Of a DNA stretch of 11,023 bases, positions 1-11,023 are shown piece by piece; position 1 is the first letter of the stretch, and each line of letters starts with the position of its first letter. A program made the position numbers and the translations under genes. Origin of the DNA: a virus. Taxonomy: Duplodnaviria > Heunggongvirae > Uroviricota > Caudoviricetes. The stretch lies in the IMG/VR virus record IMGVR_UViG_2531839448_000002. One strand, 5' to 3'. The notes below the pieces were generated by a model, which saw only the letters and a program-made list of their open reading frames with translations, made no database searches and was not told where the DNA came from.

Positions 1-974
1 AGGCTGCCAGCGATCCGATGGTGGACGGCATTCTGCTGGATATGGACACACCGGGCGGGATGGTGGCGGGAGCATTTGACTGTGCTGACATCATCGCCCG
101 TGTGCGAGACATAAAACCGGTATGGGCGCTGGCCAACGACATGAACTGCAGTGCAGGTCAGCTGCTTGCCAGCGCCGCCTCCCGGCGTCTGGTCACGCAG
201 ACCGCCCGGACAGGCTCCATCGGCGTCATGATGGCTCACAGTAATTACGGTGCTGCGCTGGAGAAACAGGGCGTGGAAATCACGCTGATTTACAGCGGCA
301 GCCATAAGGTGGATGGCAACCCCTACAGCCATCTACCGGATGATGTCCGGGAAACACTGCAGTCCCGGATGGATGCAACCCGCCGGATGTTTGCACAGAA
401 GGTGTCGGCATATACCGGCCTGTCCGTGCAGGCTGTGCTGGATACCGAGGCTGCAGTGTACAGCGGTCAGGAGGCCATTGATGCCGGACTGGCTGATGAA
501 CTTGTGAACAGTACCGATGCGATCACCGTCATGCGTGATGCACTGGATGCACGTAAATCCCGTCTCTCAGGAGGGCGAATGACCAAAGAGACTCAATCAA
601 CAACTGTTTCAGCCACTGCTTTGCAGGCTGACGTTACTGGCGTAGTGCAAGCGACGGAGGGCGAGAACGCCAGCGCTGCGCAGCCGGACGTGAACGCGCA
701 GATCACCGCAGCGGTTGCGGCAGAAAACAGTCGCATTATGGGGATCCTCAACTGTGAGGAGGCTCACGGACGCGAAGAACAGGCATGCGTGCTGGCCGAA
801 ACCCCCGGTATGACCGTGGAAACGGCCCGCCGTATTCTGGCCGCAGCACCACAGAGTGCACAGGCGCGCAGTGACACTGCGCTGGATCGTCTGATGCAGG
901 GGGCACCGGCACCGCTGGCTGCAGGTAACCCGGCATCTGATGCCGTTAACGATTTGCTGAACACACCAGTGTAA
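1..974 (+). CDS. C: Prohead protease / minor capsid protein C (lambda gpC-like, S49/ClpP-like peptidase), 5'-truncated by the window edge
   Basis: Open frame runs from the window edge (codons in phase from nt 3) to TAA at 972-974. The translation (...VDGILLDMDTPGGMVAGAFDCADIIARVRD...TARTGSIGVMMAHSNYGAALEKQGVEITLIYSGSHKVDGNPY...) is recognisable as the C-terminal two-thirds of lambda gpC. The ATG at 18 is internal, not the true start. Confidence 0.9.
   Translation, partial: AASDPMVDGILLDMDTPGGMVAGAFDCADIIARVRDIKPVWALANDMNCSAGQLLASAASRRLVTQTARTGSIGVMMAHSNYGAALEKQGVEITLIYSGSHKVDGNPYSHLPDDVRETLQSRMDATRRMFAQKVSAYTGLSVQAVLDTEAAVYSGQEAIDAGLADELVNSTDAITVMRDALDARKSRLSGGRMTKETQSTTVSATALQADVTGVVQATEGENASAAQPDVNAQITAAVAAENSRIMGILNCEEAHGREEQACVLAETPGMTVETARRILAAAPQSAQARSDTALDRLMQGAPAPLAAGNPASDAVNDLLNTPV
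579..974 (+). CDS. nu3: Capsid scaffolding protein Nu3, nested in-frame in the 3' end of C
   Basis: Internal ATG at 579 preceded by a strong SD (caGGAGGGcgaATG) gives a 131-aa product (MTKETQSTTVSAT...NDLLNTPV) sharing frame and stop with C, matching the known lambda C/Nu3 nested arrangement and the Nu3 length. Confidence 0.8.
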   Translation: MTKETQSTTVSATALQADVTGVVQATEGENASAAQPDVNAQITAAVAAENSRIMGILNCEEAHGREEQACVLAETPGMTVETARRILAAAPQSAQARSDTALDRLMQGAPAPLAAGNPASDAVNDLLNTPV

Positions 975-983
975 GGGATGTTT

Positions 984-1316
984 ATGACGAGCAAAGAAAC
1001 CTTTACCCATTACCAGCCGCTGGGCAACAGTGACCCGGCTCATACCGCAACCGCGCCCGGCGGGTTGAGTGCGAAAGCGCCTGCAATGACCCCGCTGATG
1101 CTGGACACCTCCACCCGTAAGCTGGTTGCGTGGGATGGCACCACCGACGGTGCTGCCGTTGGCATTCTTGCAGTTGCTGCTGACCAGACCAGCACCACAC
1201 TGACGTTCTACAAGTCCGGCACGTTCCGTTATGAGGATGTGCTCTGGCCGGAGGCTGCCAGCGACGAGACGAAAAAACGGACCGCGTTTGCCGGAACGGC
1301 AATCAGCATCGTTTAA
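984..1316 (+). CDS. D: Head decoration protein D (gpD-like)
   Basis: The 110-aa product [27 protein letters not shown]...AGTAISIV is near-identical to my recollection of lambda gpD. SD aaggg lies 6 nt upstream of the ATG at 984. The ORF-track start at 978 adds two residues (MF) and is probably not used. Confidence 0.93.
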
Positions 1317-1333
1317 CCTGACCCTTCATCACT

Positions 1334-1358
1334 AAAGGCCGCCTGTGCGGCTTTTTTT
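1334..1358 (+). terminator. D-E intercistronic GC hairpin followed by a T-run (terminator-like or RNA-stabilising structure)
   Basis: aaaGGCCGCctgtGCGGCttttttt: a 5-6 bp GC stem with a 4-nt loop followed by seven T, then a second T-run immediately before the E start codon. Confidence 0.45.
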
Positions 1359-1371
1359 ACGGGATTTTTTT

Positions 1372-2397
1372 ATGTCGATGTACACAACCGCCCAGCTGCT
1401 GGCGGCAAATGAGCAGAAATTTAAGTTTGATCCGCTGTTTCTGCGTCTCTTTTTCCGTGAGAGCTATCCCTTCACCACGGAAAAAGTCTATCTCTCACAA
1501 ATTCCTGGACTGGTAAACATGGCGCTGTACGTTTCGCCAATTGTTTCCGGTGAGGTTATCCGTTCCCGTGGCGGCTCCACCTCTGAATTTACGCCGGGTT
1601 ATGTCAAGCCGAAGCATGAGGTGAATCCGCAGATGACCCTGCGTCGCCTGCCGGATGAAGATCCGCAGAATCTGGCGGACCCGGCTTACCGCCGCCGTCG
1701 CATCATCCTGCAGAACATGCGTGACGAAGAGCTGGCCATTGCTCAGGTCGAAGAGATGCAGGCAGTTTCTGCCGTGCTCAAGGGCAAATACACCATGACC
1801 GGTGAAGCCTTCGATCCGGTTGAGGTGGATATGGGCCGCAGTGAGGCGAATAACATCACGCAGTCCGGCGGCACGGAGTGGAGCAAGCGTGACAAGTCCA
1901 CGTATGACCCGACCGACGATATCGAAGCCTACGCGCTGAACGCCAGCGGTGTGGTGAATATCATCGTGTTTGATCCGAAAGGCTGGGCGCTGTTCCGTTC
2001 CTTCAAAGCCGTCAAGGAGAAGCTGGATACCCGTCGCGGCTCTCATTCCGAGCTGGAGACAGCGGTAAAAGACCTGGGCAAAGCGGTGTCCTATAAGGGA
2101 ATGTATGGCGATGTGGCCATCGTCGTGTATTCCGGACAGTACGTGGAAAACGGCGTCAAAAAGAACTTCCTGCCGGACAACACGATGGTGCTGGGGAACA
2201 CTCAGGCTCGCGGTCTGCGCACCTATGGCTGCATTCAGGATGCGGACGCACAGCGCGAAGGCATTAACGCCTCTGCCCGTTACCCGAAAAACTGGGTGAC
2301 TACCGGCGATCCGGCGCGTGAGTTCACCATGATTCAGTCAGCACCGCTGATGCTGCTGGCTGATCCTGATGAGTTCGTGTCCGTTCAACTGGCGTAA
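1372..2397 (+). CDS. E: Major capsid protein E (gpE-like, HK97 fold)
   Basis: The 341-aa product MSMYTTAQLLAANEQKFKFDPLFLRLFFRESYPFTTEKVYLSQIPGLVNMALYVSPIVSGE...DEFVSVQLA matches lambda gpE in sequence and length. The ORF-track start at 1345 reads through the upstream hairpin and T-run and is rejected. Confidence 0.95.
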   Translation: MSMYTTAQLLAANEQKFKFDPLFLRLFFRESYPFTTEKVYLSQIPGLVNMALYVSPIVSGEVIRSRGGSTSEFTPGYVKPKHEVNPQMTLRRLPDEDPQNLADPAYRRRRIILQNMRDEELAIAQVEEMQAVSAVLKGKYTMTGEAFDPVEVDMGRSEANNITQSGGTEWSKRDKSTYDPTDDIEAYALNASGVVNIIVFDPKGWALFRSFKAVKEKLDTRRGSHSELETAVKDLGKAVSYKGMYGDVAIVVYSGQYVENGVKKNFLPDNTMVLGNTQARGLRTYGCIQDADAQREGINASARYPKNWVTTGDPAREFTMIQSAPLMLLADPDEFVSVQLA

Positions 2398-2399
2398 TC

Positions 2400-2420
2400 A
2401 TGGCCCTTCGGGGCCATTTT
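2400..2420 (+). terminator. E-FI intercistronic hairpin with UUCG tetraloop followed by a T-rich tract
   Basis: ATGGCCC-ttcg-GGGCCAT forms a perfect 7-bp stem with a UUCG loop, followed by tttctctct, 3 nt after the E stop codon. Confidence 0.45.
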
Positions 2421-2438
2421 CTCTCTGTGGAGGAGTTC

Positions 2439-2834
2439 ATGACGAAAGATGAACTGATTGCCCGTCTTCAGGTGCTGGGTGAGCAACTGAACCGTGATGT
2501 CAGCCTGACGGGGACGAAAGAAGAACTGGTGCTCCGTGTGGCAGAGCTGGAAGAGGAGCTTGATGACACGGATGACGCTGCCGGTCAGGACACATCTGTC
2601 AGCCCGGAAAATGCGCTGACCGGACATGAAAATGAGGTGGTATCAGCGCAGCCGGATACCGTGATTGATACGGCTGCTCTGGTCACGGTTGTGGCACTGG
2701 TGACGCTGCATACTGATGCACTTCACGCCACGCGGGATGAGCCTGTGGCATTTGTGCTGCCGGGAACGGCGTTTCGTGTCTCTGCCGGTGTGGCAGCCGA
2801 AATGACAGAACATGGCCTGGCCAGAATGCAATAA
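2439..2834 (+). CDS. FI: DNA packaging / head assembly protein FI (gpFI-like)
   Basis: The 132-aa product MTKDELIARLQVLGEQLNRDVSLTGTKEEL...EMTEHGLARMQ resembles lambda gpFI. SD GGAGG lies 6 nt upstream of the ATG at 2439. The upstream in-frame ATG at 2400 sits inside the hairpin. Confidence 0.9.
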   Translation: MTKDELIARLQVLGEQLNRDVSLTGTKEELVLRVAELEEELDDTDDAAGQDTSVSPENALTGHENEVVSAQPDTVIDTAALVTVVALVTLHTDALHATRDEPVAFVLPGTAFRVSAGVAAEMTEHGLARMQ

Positions 2835-2845
2835 CGGGAGGCGCT

Positions 2846-3199
2846 GTGGCTGATTTCGATAACCTGTTCGATGCTGCCATTGCCCGCGCCGATGAAACGA
2901 TACGCGGGTACATGGGAACGTCAGCCACCATGACATCCGGTGAGCAGTCAGGTGCGGTGATACGTGGTGTTTTTGATGACCCTGAAAATATCAGCTATGC
3001 CGGACAGGGCGTGCGCGTTGAAGGCTCCAGCCCGTCCCTGTTTGTCCGGACTGATGATGTGCGGCAGCTGCGGCGTGGAGACACACTGACCATCGGCGAG
3101 GAAAACTTCTGGGTGGACCGGATTTCGCCGGATGATGGCGGAAGCTGTCATCTCTGGCTTGGGCGTGGCGTGCCGCCTGCCGTTAACCGTCGCCGCTGA
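2846..3199 (+). CDS. FII: Head completion / head-tail joining protein FII (gpFII-like), GTG start
   Basis: The 117-aa product (M)ADFDNLFDAAIARADETIRGYMGTSAT...GRGVPPAVNRRR matches lambda gpFII. It starts at GTG 2846, with SD GGGAGG upstream. Confidence 0.9.
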   Translation: MADFDNLFDAAIARADETIRGYMGTSATMTSGEQSGAVIRGVFDDPENISYAGQGVRVEGSSPSLFVRTDDVRQLRRGDTLTIGEENFWVDRISPDDGGSCHLWLGRGVPPAVNRRR

Positions 3200-3210
3200 A
3201 AGGGGGATGT

Positions 3211-3789
3211 ATGGCCATAAAAGGTCTTGAGCAGGCCGTTGAAAACCTCAGCCGTATCAGCAAAACGGCGGTGCCTGGTGCCGCCGCAATGGCCATTAAC
3301 CGCGTTGCGTCATCCGCGATATCGCAGTCGGCGTCACAGGTTGCCCGTGAGACAAAGGTACGCCGGAAACTGGTAAAGGAAAGGGCCAGGCTGAAAAGGG
3401 CCACGGTCAAAAATCCGCAGGCCAGAATCAAAGTTAACCGGGGGGATTTGCCCGTAATAAAGCTGGGTAACGCGCGGGTTGTCCTGTCCCGACGCAGGCG
3501 TCGTAAAAAGGGGCAGCGTTCAGCCCTGAAAGGTGGCGGCAGTGTGCTTGTGGTGGGAAACCGTCGTATTCCCGGCACGTTTATTCAGCAACTGAAAAAC
3601 GGCCGGTGGCATGTTATGCAGCGTGTGGCCGGGAAAAACCGTTACCCCATTGATGTAGTGAAAATCCCGATGGCGGTGCCGCTGACCACGGCGTTTAAAC
3701 AGAATATTGAACGGATACGGCGTGAACGTCTTCCGAAAGAGCTGGGCTATGCGCTGCAGCATCAACTGAGGATGGTAATAAAGCGATGA
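3211..3789 (+). CDS. Z: Tail completion protein Z (gpZ-like)
   Basis: The 192-aa product MAIKGLEQAVENLSRISKTAVPGAAAMAINRV... matches lambda gpZ in sequence, length and position. Its stop overlaps the U start (ATGA). Confidence 0.9.
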   Translation: MAIKGLEQAVENLSRISKTAVPGAAAMAINRVASSAISQSASQVARETKVRRKLVKERARLKRATVKNPQARIKVNRGDLPVIKLGNARVVLSRRRRRKKGQRSALKGGGSVLVVGNRRIPGTFIQQLKNGRWHVMQRVAGKNRYPIDVVKIPMAVPLTTAFKQNIERIRRERLPKELGYALQHQLRMVIKR

Positions 3790-4181
3790 AACATACTGAA
3801 CTCCGTGCAGCCGTACTGGATGCACTGGAGAAGCATGACACCGGGGCGACGTTTTTTGATGGTCGCCCCGCTGTTTTTGATGAGGCGGATTTTCCGGCAG
3901 TTGCCGTTTATCTCACCGGCGCTGAATACACGGGCGAAGAGCTGGACAGCGATACCTGGCAGGCGGAGCTGCATATCGAAGTTTTCCTGCCTGCTCAGGT
4001 GCCGGATTCAGAGCTGGATGCGTGGATGGAGTCCCGGATTTATCCGGTGATGAGCGATATCCCGGCACTGTCAGATTTGATCACCAGTATGGTGGCCAGC
4101 GGCTATGACTACCGGCGCGACGATGATGCGGGCCTGTGGAGTTCAGCCGATCTGACTTATGTCATTACCTATGAAATGTGA
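3786..4181 (+). CDS. U: Tail tube terminator protein U (gpU-like)
   Basis: The 131-aa product MKHTELRAAVLDALEKHDTGATFFDGRPAVFDEADFPAVAVYLTG...LTYVITYEM matches lambda gpU. Stop TGA is at 4179-4181. Confidence 0.92.
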   Translation: MKHTELRAAVLDALEKHDTGATFFDGRPAVFDEADFPAVAVYLTGAEYTGEELDSDTWQAELHIEVFLPAQVPDSELDAWMESRIYPVMSDIPALSDLITSMVASGYDYRRDDDAGLWSSADLTYVITYEM

Positions 4182-4184
4182 GGA

Positions 4185-4193
4185 CGCTATGCC
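4185..4193. repeat. Left copy of the 9-bp IS10 target-site duplication (CGCTATGCC)
   Basis: An identical 9-mer, CGCTATGCC, directly abuts both ends of the IS element (4185-4193 and 5524-5532). It contains the original SD-proximal ATG of V. Confidence 0.85.
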
Positions 4194-4222
4194 CTGATGA
4201 ATCCCCTAATGATTTTTATCAA

Positions 4223-4273
4223 AATCATTAAGTTAAGGTAGATACACATCTTGTCATATGATCAAATGGTTTC
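4223..4273 (+). promoter_or_regulatory. IS10 outside-end regulatory region: putative IHF site and pIN promoter with Dam GATC site
   Basis: AATCATTAAGTTA resembles an IHF consensus at the position expected in IS10 (about bp 30-42). GATC at 4260-4263 falls where the Dam-regulated -10 region of the transposase promoter pIN lies in IS10. Assignments are by position from recalled IS10 organisation, not measured. Confidence 0.4.
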
Positions 4274-4308
4274 GCCAAAAATCAATAATCAGACAACAAA
4301 ATGTGCGA
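4239..4308 (-). ncRNA. Putative IS10 antisense RNA-OUT, complementary to the transposase mRNA 5' end
   Basis: Placed by positional homology only: in IS10, RNA-OUT is transcribed outward from about bp 115 to bp 46 and overlaps the transposase start codon (here ATG 4301). Boundaries are approximate. Confidence 0.4.
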
Positions 4309-5510
4309 ACTCGATATTTTACACGACTCTCTTTACCAATTCTGCCCCGAATTACACTTAAAACGACTCAACAGCTTAACGTTGGCTTGCCACGCCTTAC
4401 TTGACTGTAAAACTCTCACTCTTACCGAACTTGGCCGTAACCTGCCAACCAAAGCGAGAACAAAACATAACATCAAACGAATCGACCGATTGTTAGGTAA
4501 TCGTCACCTCCACAAAGAGCGACTCGCTGTATACCGTTGGCATGCTAGCTTTATCTGTTCGGGCAATACGATGCCCATTGTACTTGTTGACTGGTCTGAT
4601 ATCCGTGAGCAAAAACGGCTTATGGTATTGCGAGCTTCAGTCGCACTACACGGTCGTTCTGTTACTCTTTATGAGAAAGCGTTCCCGCTTTCAGAGCAAT
4701 GTTCAAAGAAAGCTCATGACCAATTTCTAGCCGACCTTGCGAGCATTCTACCGAGTAACACCACACCGCTCATTGTCAGTGATGCTGGCTTTAAAGTGCC
4801 ATGGTATAAATCCGTTGAGAAGCTGGGTTGGTACTGGTTAAGTCGAGTAAGAGGAAAAGTACAATATGCAGACCTAGGAGCGGAAAACTGGAAACCTATC
4901 AGCAACTTACATGATATGTCATCTAGTCACTCAAAGACTTTAGGCTATAAGAGGCTGACTAAAAGCAATCCAATCTCATGCCAAATTCTATTGTATAAAT
5001 CTCGCTCTAAAGGCCGAAAAAATCAGCGCTCGACACGGACTCATTGTCACCACCCGTCACCTAAAATCTACTCAGCGTCGGCAAAGGAGCCATGGATTCT
5101 AGCAACTAACTTACCTGTTGAAATTCGAACACCCAAACAACTTGTTAATATCTATTCGAAGCGAATGCAGATTGAAGAAACCTTACCGAGACTTGAAAAG
5201 TCCTGCCTACGGACTAGGCCTACGCCATAGCCGAACGAGCAGCTCAGAGCGTTTTGATATCATGCTGCTAATCGCCCTGATGCTTCAACTAACATGTTGG
5301 CTTGCGGGCGTTCATGCTCAGAAACAAGGTTGGGACAAGCACTTCCAGGCTAACACAGTCAGAAATCGAAACGTACTCTCAACAGTTCGCTTAGGCATGG
5401 AAGTTTTGCGGCATTCTGGCTACACAATAACAAGGGAAGACTCACTCGTGGCTGCAACCCTGCTTACTCAAAATCTATTCACACATGGTTACGTTTTGGG
5501 GAAATTATGA
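4301..5510 (+). pseudogene. IS10 transposase, frameshifted (disrupted single ORF)
   Basis: The expected continuous ~402-aa ORF is split into 4301-5230 (309 aa, ending ...QIEETLPRLEKSCLRTRPTP) and a +1-phase ORF 5118-5510 (...KPYRDLKSPAYGLGLRHSRTSSSERFDIML...). Both parts read as transposase on either side of about 5181-5190 (ccttaccgag). The element is 1 bp longer than canonical IS10, consistent with a single-base insertion. Confidence 0.8.
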
Positions 5511-5523
5511 GGGGATCTCTCAG

Positions 5524-5532
5524 CGCTATGCC
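5524..5532. repeat. Right copy of the 9-bp IS10 target-site duplication (CGCTATGCC)
   Basis: Identical to 4185-4193. It contains the functional V start codon at 5528. Confidence 0.85.
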
Positions 5533-6268
5533 TGTACCAAATCCTGTAATGCCGGTGAAAGGTGCCGGGACCACCCTGTGGGTTTATAAGGGGAGCGGTG
5601 ACCCTTATGCGAATCCGCTTTCAGACGTTGACTGGTCGCGTCTGGCAAAAGTTAAAGACCTGACGCCCGGCGAACTGACCGCTGAGTCCTATGACGACAG
5701 CTATCTCGATGATGAAGATGCAGACTGGACTGCGACCGGGCAGGGGCAGAAATCTGCCGGAGATACCAGCTTCACGCTGGCGTGGATGCCCGGAGAGCAG
5801 GGGCAGCAGGCGCTGCTGGCGTGGTTTAATGAAGGCGATACCCGTGCCTATAAAATCCGCTTCCCGAACGGCACGGTCGATGTGTTCCGTGGCTGGGTCA
5901 GCAGTATCGGTAAGGCGGTGACGGCGAAGGAAGTGATCACCCGCACGGTGAAAGTCACCAATGTGGGACGTCCGTCGATGGCAGAAGATCGCAGCACGGT
6001 AACAGCGGCAACCGGTATGACCGTGACGCCAGCCAGCGCTTCCGTAGTGAAAGGGAAGAGCACCACGCTGACCGTGGCATTCCAGCCGGAAGGCGCAACC
6101 GACAAGAGCTTCCGTGCGGTGTCAGCGGATAAAACAAAAGCCACCGTGTCGGTCAGTGGTATGACCATCACCGTGAATGGCGTTGCTGCAGGTAAGGTCA
6201 ACATTCCGGTCGTATCCGGTAATGGTGAGTTTGCTGCGGTTGCAGAAATCACCGTCACCGCCAGTTAA
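5528..6268 (+). CDS. V: Major tail tube protein V (gpV-like) with C-terminal Ig-like domain
   Basis: The 246-aa product [36 protein letters not shown]...AEITVTAS matches lambda gpV. The C-terminal ~80 aa ([25 protein letters not shown]...) is the Ig-like (Big_2-type) domain. The ORF-track start at 5507 lies inside IS10 (see findings). Confidence 0.9.
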
Positions 6269-6283
6269 TCCGGAGAGTCAGAG

Positions 6284-6706
6284 ATGTTCCTGAAAACCGA
6301 ATCATTTGAACATAACGGCGTGACCGTCACGCTTTCTGAACTGTCAGCCCTGCAGCGTATTGAGCATCTCGCCCTGATGAAACGGCAGGCAGAACAGGCG
6401 GAGTCAGACAGCAACCGGCAGGTTACTGTGGAAGACGTCATCAGAACCGGTGCTTGTGTGGTGGCGATGTCCCTGTGGCATAACCATCCGAAGAAGACGC
6501 AGATGCCGTCCATGAATGAAGCCGTTAAACAGATTGAGCAGGAAGTGCTTACCACCTGGCCTACAGAGGCAATTTCTCATGCTGAAAACGTGGTGTACCG
6601 GCTGTCCGGTATGTATGAGTTTGTGGTGAATGATGCCCCTGAACAGGCAGAGGACGCTGGGCCTGCAGAGCCTGTTTCTGCGGGAAAGTGTTCGACGGTG
6701 AGCTGA
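6284..6706 (+). CDS. G: Tail assembly chaperone G (gpG-like)
   Basis: The 140-aa product MFLKTESFEHNGVTVTLSELSALQRIEHLALMKRQAEQ... matches lambda gpG. SD GGAGAG lies upstream. Confidence 0.9.
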   Translation: MFLKTESFEHNGVTVTLSELSALQRIEHLALMKRQAEQAESDSNRQVTVEDVIRTGACVVAMSLWHNHPKKTQMPSMNEAVKQIEQEVLTTWPTEAISHAENVVYRLSGMYEFVVNDAPEQAEDAGPAEPVSAGKCSTVS

Positions 6707-7122
6707 GTTTTGCCCTGAAACTGGCGCGCGAGATGGGGCGACCCGACTGGCGTGCCATGCTTGCCGGGATGTCATCCACGGAGTATGCCGACTGGCACCG
6801 CTTTTACAGTACCCATTATTTTCATGATGTTCTGCTGGATATGCACTTTTCCGGGCTGACGTACACCGTGCTCAGCCTGTTTTTCAGCGATCCGGATATG
6901 CATCCGCTGGATTTCAGTCTGCTGAACCGGCGTGAGGCTGACGAAGAGCCTGAAGATGATGTGCTGATGCAGAAAGCGGCAGGGCTTGCCGGAGGCGTTC
7001 GTTTTGGCCCGGACGGGAATGAAGTTATCCCCGCTTCCCCGGATGTGGCGGACATGACGGAGGATGACGTAATGCTGATGACAGTATCAGAAGGGATCGC
7101 AGGAGGAGTCCGGTATGGCTGA
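6284..7122 (+). CDS. GT: Tail assembly chaperone GT, made by -1 programmed ribosomal frameshift from G into T
   Basis: Slippery heptamer G GGA AAG is in the G zero frame at 6682-6688. The -1 frame continues as ORF 6688-7122 (MFDGELSFALKLAREMGRPDWRAMLAGMSS...), which has no SD or independent start context and matches the lambda T segment. Confidence 0.8.
6682..6688 (+). other. -1 programmed ribosomal frameshift slippery site (G GGA AAG) for G/GT
   Basis: The X XXY YYZ heptamer GGGAAAG is in phase with G codons (gcG GGA AAG tgt), 6 codons before the G stop, and the T reading frame opens in the -1 phase. Confidence 0.8.
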
Positions 7123-9694
7123 ACCGGTAGGCGATCTGGTCGTTGATTTAAGTCTGGATGCGGCCAGATTTGACGAGCAGATGGCCAGAGTCAGGCGTCA
7201 TTTTTCCGGTACGGAAACTGATGCGAAAAAAACAGCGGCAGTCGTTGAACAGTCGCTGAGCCGACAGGCGCTGGCTGCACAGAAAGCGGGGATTTCCGTC
7301 GGGCAGTATAAAGCCGCCATGCGTATGCTGCCTGCACAGTTCACCGACGTGGCCACGCAGCTTGCAGGCGGGCAAAGTCCGTGGCTGATCCTGCTGCAAC
7401 AGGGTGGTCAGGTTAAGGACTCCTTCGGCGGGATGATCCCCATGTTCAGGGGGCTTGCCGGTGCGATCACCCTGCCGATGGTGGGGGCCACCTCGCTGGC
7501 GGTGGCGACCGGTGCGCTGGCGTATGCCTGGTATCAGGGCAACTCAACCCTGTCCGATTTCAACAAAAGGCTGGTCCTTTCCGGCAATCAGGCGGGACTG
7601 ACGGCAGATCGTATTCTGGCCCTGTCCAGAGCCGGGCAGGCGGCAGGGCTGACGTTTAACCAGACCAGCGAGTCACTGACGGCGCTGGTGAATGCCGGTG
7701 TGCGTGGTGGTGAGCAGTTTGAGGCGATCAGCCAGAGTGTGGCGCGTTTCTCCTCTGCATCCGGCGTGGAGGTGGACAAGGTCGCTGAAGCCTTCGGGAA
7801 GCTGACCACAGACCCGACGTCGGGACTGACAGCGATGGCACGTCAGTTCCATAACGTGACGGCGGAGCAGATTGCGTATGTTGCTCAGTTGCAGCGTTCC
7901 GGAGATGAAGCCGGGGCATTGCAGGCGGCGAACGAGGCCGCAACGAAAGGGTTTGATGACCAGACCCGCCGCCTGAAAGAGAACATGGGCACGCTGGAGA
8001 CCTGGGCAGACAGGACAGCACGGGCATTCAAATCCATGTGGGATTCGGTGCTGGATATTGGTCGCCCGGACACTGCCCAGGGAATGCTGGAGAAAGCAGA
8101 AAAGGCTTTTGATGAGGCGGACAAAAAATGGCAGTGGTATCAGAGCCGGAGCCACCGGCGCGGTAAAACCTCAGCATTTCTTGCCAATCTCCGGGGAGCA
8201 TGGGAGGACAGAGCGAATGCGCAACTTGGGCTTTCAGCCGCCACGTTGCAGGCCGATCTTGAAAAGGCCAGAGAGATGGCAGCAAAGGACTGGGCCGAGT
8301 CTGAGGCATCACGGCTGAAATATACCGAAGAGGCGCAGAAGGCTTACGAACGCCTGCAGACGCCGCTGGAGAAATATACCGCCCGTCAGGAAGAACTGAA
8401 CAAGGCACTGAAAGACGGGAAAATCCTGCAGGCAGATTACAACACGCTGATGGCGGCGGCGAAAAAGGATTATGAAGCGACGCTGAAAAAGCCGAAACAG
8501 TCCGGCGTGAAAGTGTCTGCGGGCGATCGTCAGGAAGACAGTGCTCATGCTGCCCTGCTGACGCTTCAGGCTGAACTCCGGACGCTGGAGAAGCATGCCG
8601 GAGCAAATGAGAAAATCAGCCAGCAGCGCCGGGATTTGTGGAAGGCGGAGAGTCAGTTCGCGGTACTGGAGGAGGCGGCGCAACGTCGCCAGCTGTCCGC
8701 ACAGGAGAAATCCCTGCTGGCGCATAAAGATGAGACGCTGGAGTACAAACGCCAGCTGGCTGCACTTGGCGACAAGGTTACGTATCAGGAGCGCCTGAAC
8801 GCGCTGGCGCAGCAGGCGGATAAATTCGCACAGCAGCAACGGGCAAAACGGGCCGCCATTGATGCGAAAAGCCGGGGGCTGACTGACCGGCAGGCAGCGC
8901 GGGAAGCCACGGAACAGCGCCTGAAGGAACAGTATGGCGATAATCCGCTGGCGCTGAATAACGTCATGTCAGAGCAGAAAAAGACCTGGGCGGCTGAAGA
9001 CCAGCTTCGCGGGAGCTGGATGGCAGGCCTGACGTCCGGCTGGAGTGAGTGGGAAGAGAGCGCCACGGACAGTATGTCGCAGGTAAAAAGTGCAGCCACG
9101 CAGACCTTTGATGGTATTGCACAGAATATGGCGGCGATGCTGACCGGCAGTGAGCAGAACTGGCGCAGCTTCACCCGTTCCGTGCTGTCCATGATGACAG
9201 AAATTCTGCTTAAGCAGGCAATGGTGGGGATTGTCGGGAGTATCGGCAGCGCCATTGGCGGGGCTGTTGGTGGCGGCGCATCCGCGTCAGGCGGTACAGC
9301 CATTCAGGCCGCTGCGGCGAAATTCCATTTTGCAACCGGAGGATTTACGGGAACCGGCGGCAAATATGAGCCAGCGGGGATTGTTCACCGTGGTGAATTT
9401 GTCTTCACAAAGGAGGCAACCAGCCGGATTGGCGTGGGGAATCTCTACCGGCTGATGCGCGGCTATGCCACCGGTGGTTATGTCGGTACACCGGGCAGTC
9501 TGGCTGACAGCCGATCGCAGGCGTCCGGGACGTTTGAGCAGAATAACCATGTGGTGATTAACAACGACGGCACGAACGGGCAGATAGGTCCGGCTGCTCT
9601 GAAGGCGGTGTATGACATGGCCCGCAAGGGTGCCCGTGATGAAATTCAGACACAGATGCGTGATGGTGGACTGTTCTCCGGAGGTGGACGATGA
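7115..9694 (+). CDS. H: Tail tape measure protein H (gpH-like), 859 aa
   Basis: MAEPVGDLVVDLSLDAARFDEQMARVRRHF... has a long Ala/Gln/Lys-rich predicted helical middle and a Gly-rich C-terminal region (GIVGSIGSAIGGAVGGGASASGGTAIQ...), matching lambda gpH. It overlaps the T stop and the M start (ATGA). Confidence 0.93.
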   Translation: MAEPVGDLVVDLSLDAARFDEQMARVRRHFSGTETDAKKTAAVVEQSLSRQALAAQKAGISVGQYKAAMRMLPAQFTDVATQLAGGQSPWLILLQQGGQVKDSFGGMIPMFRGLAGAITLPMVGATSLAVATGALAYAWYQGNSTLSDFNKRLVLSGNQAGLTADRILALSRAGQAAGLTFNQTSESLTALVNAGVRGGEQFEAISQSVARFSSASGVEVDKVAEAFGKLTTDPTSGLTAMARQFHNVTAEQIAYVAQLQRSGDEAGALQAANEAATKGFDDQTRRLKENMGTLETWADRTARAFKSMWDSVLDIGRPDTAQGMLEKAEKAFDEADKKWQWYQSRSHRRGKTSAFLANLRGAWEDRANAQLGLSAATLQADLEKAREMAAKDWAESEASRLKYTEEAQKAYERLQTPLEKYTARQEELNKALKDGKILQADYNTLMAAAKKDYEATLKKPKQSGVKVSAGDRQEDSAHAALLTLQAELRTLEKHAGANEKISQQRRDLWKAESQFAVLEEAAQRRQLSAQEKSLLAHKDETLEYKRQLAALGDKVTYQERLNALAQQADKFAQQQRAKRAAIDAKSRGLTDRQAAREATEQRLKEQYGDNPLALNNVMSEQKKTWAAEDQLRGSWMAGLTSGWSEWEESATDSMSQVKSAATQTFDGIAQNMAAMLTGSEQNWRSFTRSVLSMMTEILLKQAMVGIVGSIGSAIGGAVGGGASASGGTAIQAAAAKFHFATGGFTGTGGKYEPAGIVHRGEFVFTKEATSRIGVGNLYRLMRGYATGGYVGTPGSLADSRSQASGTFEQNNHVVINNDGTNGQIGPAALKAVYDMARKGARDEIQTQMRDGGLFSGGGR

Positions 9695-10020
9695 AAACCT
9701 TCCGCTGGAAAGTGAAACCCGGTATGGATGTGGCTTCGGCCCCTTCTGTAAGAAAGGTGCGCTTTGGTGATGGCTATTCCCAGCGAGCGCCTGCCGGGCT
9801 GAATGCCAACCTGAAAACGTACAGCGTGACGCTTTCTGTCCCCCGTTGGGAGGCCACGGCGCTGGAGTCGTTTCTGGAAGAGCACGGGGGCTGGAAAGCC
9901 TTTCTGTGGACGCCGCCTTATGAGTGGCGGCAGATAAAGGTGACTTGCGCAAAATGGTCGTCGCGGGTCAGTATGCTGCGTGTTGAGTTCAGCGCAGAGT
10001 TTGAACAGGTGGTGAACTGA
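9691..10020 (+). CDS. M: Minor tail (tail tip) protein M (gpM-like)
   Basis: The 109-aa product MKTFRWKVKPGMDVASAPSVRKVRFGDGYSQRAPAGLNANLKTYSV... matches lambda gpM. Its stop overlaps the L start. Confidence 0.92.
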   Translation: MKTFRWKVKPGMDVASAPSVRKVRFGDGYSQRAPAGLNANLKTYSVTLSVPRWEATALESFLEEHGGWKAFLWTPPYEWRQIKVTCAKWSSRVSMLRVEFSAEFEQVVN

Positions 10021-10718
10021 TGCAGGATATCCGACAGGAAACACTGAATGAATGCACCCGTGCGGAGCAGTCGGCCAGCGTGGTGCTCTGGGAAATCGAC
10101 CTGACAGAGGTCGGTGGAGAACGTTATTTTTTCTGTAATGAGCAGAACGATAAAGGTGAGCCGGTCACCTGGCAGGGGCGACAGTATCAGGCGTATCCCA
10201 TTCAGGGGACGGGATTTGAACTGAACGGCAAAGGCAGTGCTGCCCGTCCGACACTGACGGTTTCTAACCTGCACGGCATGGTCACCGGGATGGCGGAAGA
10301 TCTGCAGAGTCTGGTCGGCGGAACGGTGGTCCGGCGTAAGGTTTACGCCCGTTTTCTGGATGCGGTGAACTTCGTCAACGGAAACAGTGACGCCGATCCG
10401 GAGCAGGAGGTGATCAGCCGCTGGCGCATTGAGCAGTGCAGCGAACTGAGCGCGGTGAGTGCCTCTTTTGTACTGTCCACGCCGACGGAAACGGACGGCG
10501 CTGTTTTTCCGGGACGTATCATGCTGGCCAACACCTGCACCTGGACCTATCGCGGCGATGAGTGCGGTTATCACGGTCCGGCGGTCGCGGATGAATATGA
10601 CCAGCCAACGTTCGATATCACGAAGGATAAATGCAGCAAATGCCTGAGTGGCTGTAAGTTTCGCAATAACGTCGGCAACTTTGGCGGCTTCCTTTCCATT
10701 AACAAACTTTCGCAGTAA
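10020..10718 (+). CDS. L: Minor tail (tail tip) protein L (gpL-like) with C-terminal Cys cluster
   Basis: The 232-aa product MQDIRQETLNECTRAEQSASVVLWEIDLTEVGGERYFFCNEQN... matches lambda gpL. The C-terminal cysteines (CTWTYRGDECGYHG...DKCSKCLSGCKF) fit the Fe-S cluster reported for gpL. Confidence 0.92.
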   Translation: MQDIRQETLNECTRAEQSASVVLWEIDLTEVGGERYFFCNEQNDKGEPVTWQGRQYQAYPIQGTGFELNGKGSAARPTLTVSNLHGMVTGMAEDLQSLVGGTVVRRKVYARFLDAVNFVNGNSDADPEQEVISRWRIEQCSELSAVSASFVLSTPTETDGAVFPGRIMLANTCTWTYRGDECGYHGPAVADEYDQPTFDITKDKCSKCLSGCKFRNNVGNFGGFLSINKLSQ

Positions 10719-10722
10719 TCCC

Positions 10723-11023
10723 ATGACAGAGACAGAATCAGCGATTCTGGCGCACGCCCGGCGATGTGCGCCAGCGGAGTCGTGCGGCTTCGTGGTGAGA
10801 ACGCCGGAGGGGGAAAGATATTTTCCCTGCGTGAATATTTCCGGTGAGCCGGAGGATTATTTCCGGATGGCTCCGGAGGACTGGCTGCAGGCAGAAATGC
10901 AGGGTGAGATTGTGGCGCTGGTCCACAGCCACCCCGGTGGTCTGCCCTGGCTGAGTGAGGCCGACCGGCGGCTGCAGGTGCAGAGTGATTTGCCGTGGTG
11001 GCTGGTCTGCCGGGGGACGATTC
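10723..11023 (+). CDS. K: Tail tip assembly protein K (gpK-like, MPN/JAMM plus NlpC/P60), 3'-truncated by the window edge
   Basis: ATG at 10723 is 4 nt after the L stop. The translation MTETESAILAHARRCAPAESCGFVVRTPEGERYFPCVNISGEPEDYFRMAPEDWLQAEMQGEIVALVHSHPGGLPWLSEADRRLQ... matches the lambda gpK N-terminus, including the HxH...S..D JAMM-type motif. The frame is open to the window end. It is absent from the ORF track because there is no stop in the window. Confidence 0.88.
   Translation, partial: MTETESAILAHARRCAPAESCGFVVRTPEGERYFPCVNISGEPEDYFRMAPEDWLQAEMQGEIVALVHSHPGGLPWLSEADRRLQVQSDLPWWLVCRGTI

Follow-up and report, generated by a model that had tools for sequence, protein, structure and literature searches.

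An IS10-Left-type element with one extra base, real or misread, in its transposase gene, inserted between U and V in the tail gene region of a lambda-like prophage

Introduction

Of the two IS10 copies of Tn10, IS10-Right is the textbook active copy. The view that IS10-Left is inactive is repeated in the literature (PMC11148124), and transposition of an IS10L element has been observed in NEB5alpha, the element being so named in the same study (PMC11481808). Both belong to the IS10 subgroup of the IS4 family, in which 5'-CT ends are typical (PMC2266710) and the target duplication is 9 bp (PMC2266710, Table 1). One of the defining traits of the IS4 family is a transposase gene free of frameshifts (PMC2266710), and its transposases share the signature Y-(2)-R-(3)-E-(6)-K, the glutamate of which is the E of the DDE triad (PMC2266710, PMC2705183). 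In Tn5, the lysine of this YREK signature contacts a transferred-strand phosphate (PMC2566895).

Here we describe an IS10 element in a window of 11,023 bp, which is the whole of the draft WGS contig AFEB01000013.1 (assembly GCA_000225245.2). The coordinates of the element, of its parts and of the neighbouring phage genes are collected in Table 1.

Table 1. Features of the IS10 element and of its surroundings in the window.
Feature	Position	Strand	Basis and remarks
Gene U, lambda-type minor tail gene	3786..4181	+	Pfam Phage_tail_U on the called gene; annotated U in related phages; left neighbour of IS10
Target-site duplication, left copy CGCTATGCC, 9 bp	4185..4193	.	Original V start ATG 4189-4191 lies inside; 9-mer repeated at 5524-5532
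IS10, assigned to the IS10-Left type (RefSeq label 'ISVsa5 family'), 1,330 bp	4194..5523	+	Alignment to R100 copy; outside end 4194, inside end 5523
Outside-end terminal repeat CTGATGAATCCCCTAATGATTTT	4194..4216	+	Identical to the R100 IS10-Left end
RNA-OUT antisense RNA gene, complete	4239..4308	-	Rfam RF00240, 97.3 bits, gathering score 41, model positions 1-70 of 70
Truncated transposase ORF, 309 codons	4301..5230	+	294 native residues and 15 out-of-frame; TAG stop 5228-5230
E292 codon, DDE/YREK glutamate	5174..5176	+	YREK pattern match; three codons upstream of the break
Extra A, +1 frame shift	5185..5185	+	Inside native codon 295 (TT-A-C); only difference from reference IS10-Left
Native codons 296-402 and TGA stop, in the +1 frame	5187..5510	+	Part of mechanical ORF 5118-5510 (130 aa); K299 at 5196-5198
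Inside-end terminal repeat, reverse complement CTGAGAGATCCCCTCATAATTTC	5501..5523	-	Identical to R100 IS10-Left
Target-site duplication, right copy CGCTATGCC	5524..5532	.	Contains the V start now in use, ATG 5528-5530
Gene V, lambda-type major tail gene	5528..6268	+	Right neighbour of IS10; coding sequence intact, but separated from its own ribosome-binding site

Results

Apart from the element, the window contains genes for the head and the tail from a lambda-like prophage (Nu3/C, D, E, FI, FII, Z, U, V, G, T, H, M, L and the beginning of K), and the gene calls give 14 of 14 phage genes as intact. The insertion point is the 7-bp gap between U and V. When the IS10 and one copy of the repeat are taken out, the remaining 9,684 bp are 100.000% identical, gap-free, to the prophage of the porcine ETEC strain ETEC1731 (NZ_CP122816.1), window positions 1-4193 and 5533-11023 corresponding to L007 408-10091. 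For the right flank, ETEC1747 and CV839-06 likewise show ~100% identity. The source strain is probably closely related to the pig ETEC isolates ETEC1731, ETEC1747 and CV839-06. In a junction query, IS10 was absent from the U/V site of all three isolates, and no other genome with the same U/V::IS10 insertion was found either by the junction query or by a search with the 239-aa V product. Short contigs that matched this V product were considered as further cases of the insertion and rejected, as they end in an IS66-family element, not in IS10. Because the element is flanked by a 9-bp duplication and the empty site is fully identical to ETEC1731 over the 9,684 bp, the insertion between U and V is a genuine, recent transposition into a known prophage.

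Against a less similar phage, the 97.8%-identical phiSTEC1575-Stx2k, one further indel is seen, in the L-K intergenic spacer at ~10716, where the window has TAAT and the phage TAAAT. The TAAT version is a common natural allele (835 E. coli records are at least 99% identical to the window version), and this one-base difference is therefore not an assembly error.

With respect to gene V, the IS10 landed between its ribosome-binding site and its coding sequence (window 4179-4197 and 5498-5535). The GAGGA at 4180-4184 and the ATG at 4189 now open a two-codon ORF, ATG CCC TGA, and the V start at 5528 is now preceded by the IS10 inside end. Another ATG, at 5507, shares the reading frame of V; it overlaps the transposase stop TGA (5508-5510) and follows GGGG at 5498-5501. 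A start there would add the seven residues MRGSLSA to V (ORF 5507-6268). The inward-to-outward promoters of IS10, pIII and OUTIIp, are discussed in PMC11481808; since the inside end faces V, they point into V-G-T-H. With V cut off from its own ribosome-binding site, the prophage is probably crippled.

The start of V has also received other insertions. In the complete E. coli genome CP035884.1 (L013 270-300 and 2980-2995), an element of the IS66 family, which bears three genes (TnpB_IS66 and DDE_Tnp_IS66 among them) and has the duplication GTACCAAA, lies in codons 3-5 of V, ~10 bp from the IS10 site of the window, and several draft contigs (starts of L015 and L017) break at the same IS66 end. 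The IS10 and IS66-family insertions indicate that two IS families struck the V start independently.

The element itself shows the features of the IS10 subgroup, with the terminal sequences at both ends and the 9-bp duplication, and it has RNA-OUT opposite the transposase start, as is a feature of IS10. Compared by eye, 17 of 23 positions agree between the outside end (4194-4216) and the inside end (5501-5523, reverse complement). Window 4194-5523 (1,330 bp) was aligned globally to an IS10 copy of Tn10 on plasmid R100 (NC_002134.1:36132-37460; 1,329 bp), and the extra A at 5185 was the sole difference. A preliminary description of this DNA had put the length at 1330 instead of 1329 bp and had attributed the surplus to one additional base, probably this A; the alignment agrees on both counts, and the reading frame is repaired when the base is removed.

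The two IS10 copies of R100 differ from each other at 15 nucleotides, which result in four amino acid differences (I266V, S381L, T389A and V398A), and the window copy agrees with the gltS-side copy at 15 of these 15 distinguishing positions. The gltS-side copy encodes WP_001352368.1 (RefSeq label 'IS4-like element ISVsa5 family'), a protein that is also the product of the NEB5alpha element at 168,787-170,113. A search of the literature for a text that ties ISVsa5 to IS10L by name found none. The tetD-side copy of R100 has the outside end GATTTTGGTAAAAATC, which we take to be the outside end of IS10-Right. The alignment to both copies, which had been proposed as a check in the preliminary description, thus yields one inserted base relative to Left, while 15 further differences set Right apart. 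Judged by these positions and by the protein shared with the IS10L of NEB5alpha, the window element is assigned to the IS10-Left type, which bears out the earlier impression of an IS10-Left-like copy.

IS10-Left-type sequence is not rare in E. coli, with 1,310 records whose best match is at least 99% identical to the window copy; a further 989 E. coli records (complete genomes) lie in the band of 95-99% identity, where IS10-Right falls. The textbook picture of Left as a dead copy fits poorly with this abundance of IS10-Left as a solo IS.

The extra A stands in the context CCTT-A-CCGAG, and the junction reads CCTTACCGAG, where normal IS10 reads CCTTCCGAG. Deletion of A5185 in silico gives a 402-codon ORF identical to WP_001352368.1. 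Since the removal of one base restores the ORF, the window element is a damaged or misread IS10 and not another kind of element. The uninterrupted transposase ORF that is a hallmark of the IS4 family is split at 5185 into the frames 4301-5230 (309 aa) and 5118-5510 (130 aa), which are both present as described earlier. The 309-aa product has the first 294 residues of WP_001352368.1, then LPRLEKSCLRTRPTP, and then a stop. The gene calls on record list two genes, 4301-5230 (309 aa) and 5193-5510 (105 aa, without a Pfam hit), for what is one damaged transposase gene, and this two-gene annotation is a consequence of the extra base.

Other carriers of the base were sought with a query of 71 nt centred on A5185 in 5,426 complete E. 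coli genomes. The query found 5,338 places in 1,606 records (1,319 genomes), and the best place per record was always in the 95-99% identity band. Since no place in any record reached at least 99%, no E. coli copy examined carries the extra A (0 of 5,338 IS10 places). Also, exact 41-mer scans gave 0 matches in 185,579 species-representative genomes and 0 matches in JGI metagenomes, and an exact-protein look-up returned the 309-aa product for AFEB01000013.1 only; in a literature search, no paper gave this WGS accession. Two other contigs with the 105-aa tail ORF came up as candidate carriers and were rejected, as in both the sequence begins within a normal IS10 copy, reading CCTTCCGAG. A5185 is a singleton and, being unique among thousands of copies, the frameshift is uninformative on IS10 biology in general.

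Two readings of this singleton have to be weighed. At the remaining 11,013 bases the contig shows no mismatch with independent references (the R100 IS10 and the ETEC1731 prophage), and the 14 phage genes contain no further frame-breaking indel. The contig consensus looks accurate, which favours a real base. Changes in homopolymer length are the commonest indel error of consensus sequences and the usual error mode of pyrosequencing and nanopore sequencing. CCTT-A-CCG is not a homopolymer, and this counts for a real base as well. These points speak against the reading of A5185 as a sequencing or assembly artefact, under which the true element would be an intact 1,329-bp IS10-Left with a 402-codon transposase. 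That reading nevertheless gains weight from the absence of the base from all other IS10 copies, whether at the E. coli places or in the genome and metagenome scans, from the single contig on record for the truncated protein, and from the nature of the source record, a short draft WGS contig. Further, zero substitutions over 11 kb leave very little time for a real mutation, and an untemplated insertion outside a homopolymer is an unusual spontaneous mutation. We consider an artefact a serious contender, with a chance somewhat short of even. A real private mutation in a non-autonomous IS10-Left is slightly favoured over a consensus error, and we put its probability a little above one half.

The broken frame could also be read as a functional one. 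The two frames overlap by 113 nt (5118-5230), such that a +1 shift anywhere in this stretch would lead to the long product, and a rare AGA codon (5189-5191) follows the insertion. Functional +1 frameshifting (e.g. at CCG-AGA, where the rare AGA would occupy the A site) or transcriptional slippage would then yield full-length transposase in small amounts and make the copy an attenuated autonomous IS10. However, an X_XXY_YYZ heptamer in the transposase frame is absent from 5118-5230, where the longest run is AAAA and no homopolymer exceeds 4, which upholds the earlier remark on the lack of a slippery heptamer. To judge from the codons, the P-site tRNA could not re-pair in the +1 frame at UUA-C or at CCG-A. 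The shift occurs in no other IS10 copy examined (0 of 5,338 places) and is thus not conserved. The preliminary description had further held that IS4-family transposases are not known to use programmed frameshifting, in keeping with the frameshift-free transposase gene that marks the family (PMC2266710). For a restart of the downstream frame, no Shine-Dalgarno-like sequence was found before any in-frame TTG or ATG candidate, and ORF 5118-5510 alone gave no Pfam hit. With neither a slippery site nor conservation among copies, programmed recoding is unsupported; the shift is accidental and does not amount to a mechanism, and an attenuated autonomous element of this kind is scarcely credible.

Elsewhere in the window, GGGAAAG occurs at 6682-6688, close to where G (6284-6706), the tail chaperone gene, ends and at its overlap with T (6688-7122). 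This sequence is the classic -1 programmed frameshift site of lambda G/GT, a true signal for recoding that has nothing to do with the break in IS10.

The position of the break relative to the catalytic residues was determined from the family signature, which in the intact protein corresponds by motif match to Y285, R288, E292 and K299. The residue numbering is confirmed by W265, named as a base-stacking tryptophan in PMC2705183 and found here at position 265. The intact IS10 transposase had no match among PDB sequences in a phmmer search, even at E = 10, so that the DDE/YREK mapping rests on the motif match and the literature; a literature search on E292 of Tn10 transposase found no relevant paper. 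In the preliminary description the break had been located upstream of the third DDE residue. This has to be corrected, since the codon of E292 precedes the extra base, which lies in codon 295.

The 309-aa product retains D97, D161 and E292, together with W265, Y285 and R288, and loses K299 and the C-terminal 108 residues (295-402). The DDE triad and the full YREK signature do not occur together on one polypeptide, K299 (5196-5198) being readable in the +1 frame only. Pfam DDE_Tnp_1 covers residues 90-303 of the truncated product, equivalent to profile positions 3-175 of 200, as against 3-199 in the intact protein; the truncated product is without the final 25 positions of the model for the catalytic domain and without the whole C-terminal quarter. 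A 309-residue protein would keep its N-terminal DNA-binding part along with the complete DDE triad, and would be expected to be catalytically dead, with K299, the end of the catalytic domain and the C-terminal quarter missing. Knowledge of the family gives good grounds to regard the truncated protein as inactive.

Discussion

A canonical IS10-Left jumped into the 7-bp U/V gap and left the usual 9-bp duplication. We propose that the copy then gained a private, untemplated +1 insertion, A5185, in transposase codon 295. With both ends and RNA-OUT untouched, the result would be a non-autonomous IS10, mobile only via the transposase of another IS10. IS10 transposase acts preferentially in cis, and rescue in trans would therefore be inefficient. 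The copy could still supply antisense RNA that represses other IS10 copies. The term non-autonomous, which was also that of the preliminary description, holds only if A5185 is real; otherwise the element has an intact 402-codon transposase.

What the locus means differs accordingly between the readings. If the base is real, the element is one more pseudogenised IS copy, a fresh IS10-Left insertion without self-mobility. If the base is an artefact, there is only an annotation error in a draft genome, with two 'genes' for one transposase. A more active role may be imagined for a real base, by analogy with the Tn5 inhibitor protein: the 309-residue fragment, with its N-terminal end-binding region and DDE residues but no C-terminal part, might together with RNA-OUT inhibit the other IS10 copies of the cell in a trans-dominant manner. 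The copy would then be a repressor locus and not dead weight. We consider such a role very unlikely.

In comparison with described systems, the copy is already known, being textbook IS10-Left plus one extra base, with nothing new. It shares all 1,329 reference positions of the IS10-Left of Tn10 (R100), both ends included, with zero substitutions; IS10-Left has an uninterrupted 402-codon ORF, whereas the window copy is split into 309- and 130-codon pieces by the extra A. The IS10-Right of Tn10, the R100 copy adjoining tetD, is 98.9% identical and resembles the window copy in length class, organisation and end structure, but is set apart from it by changes in the outside end and the RNA-IN/RNA-OUT region as well. 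Two overlapping frames are all that the window copy has in common with the IS1- and IS3-family transposases that use programmed frameshifting. All copies of those elements carry a conserved -1 slippery A-rich heptamer, whereas the window copy has a +1 offset, no slippery site and a shift that is found in one copy.
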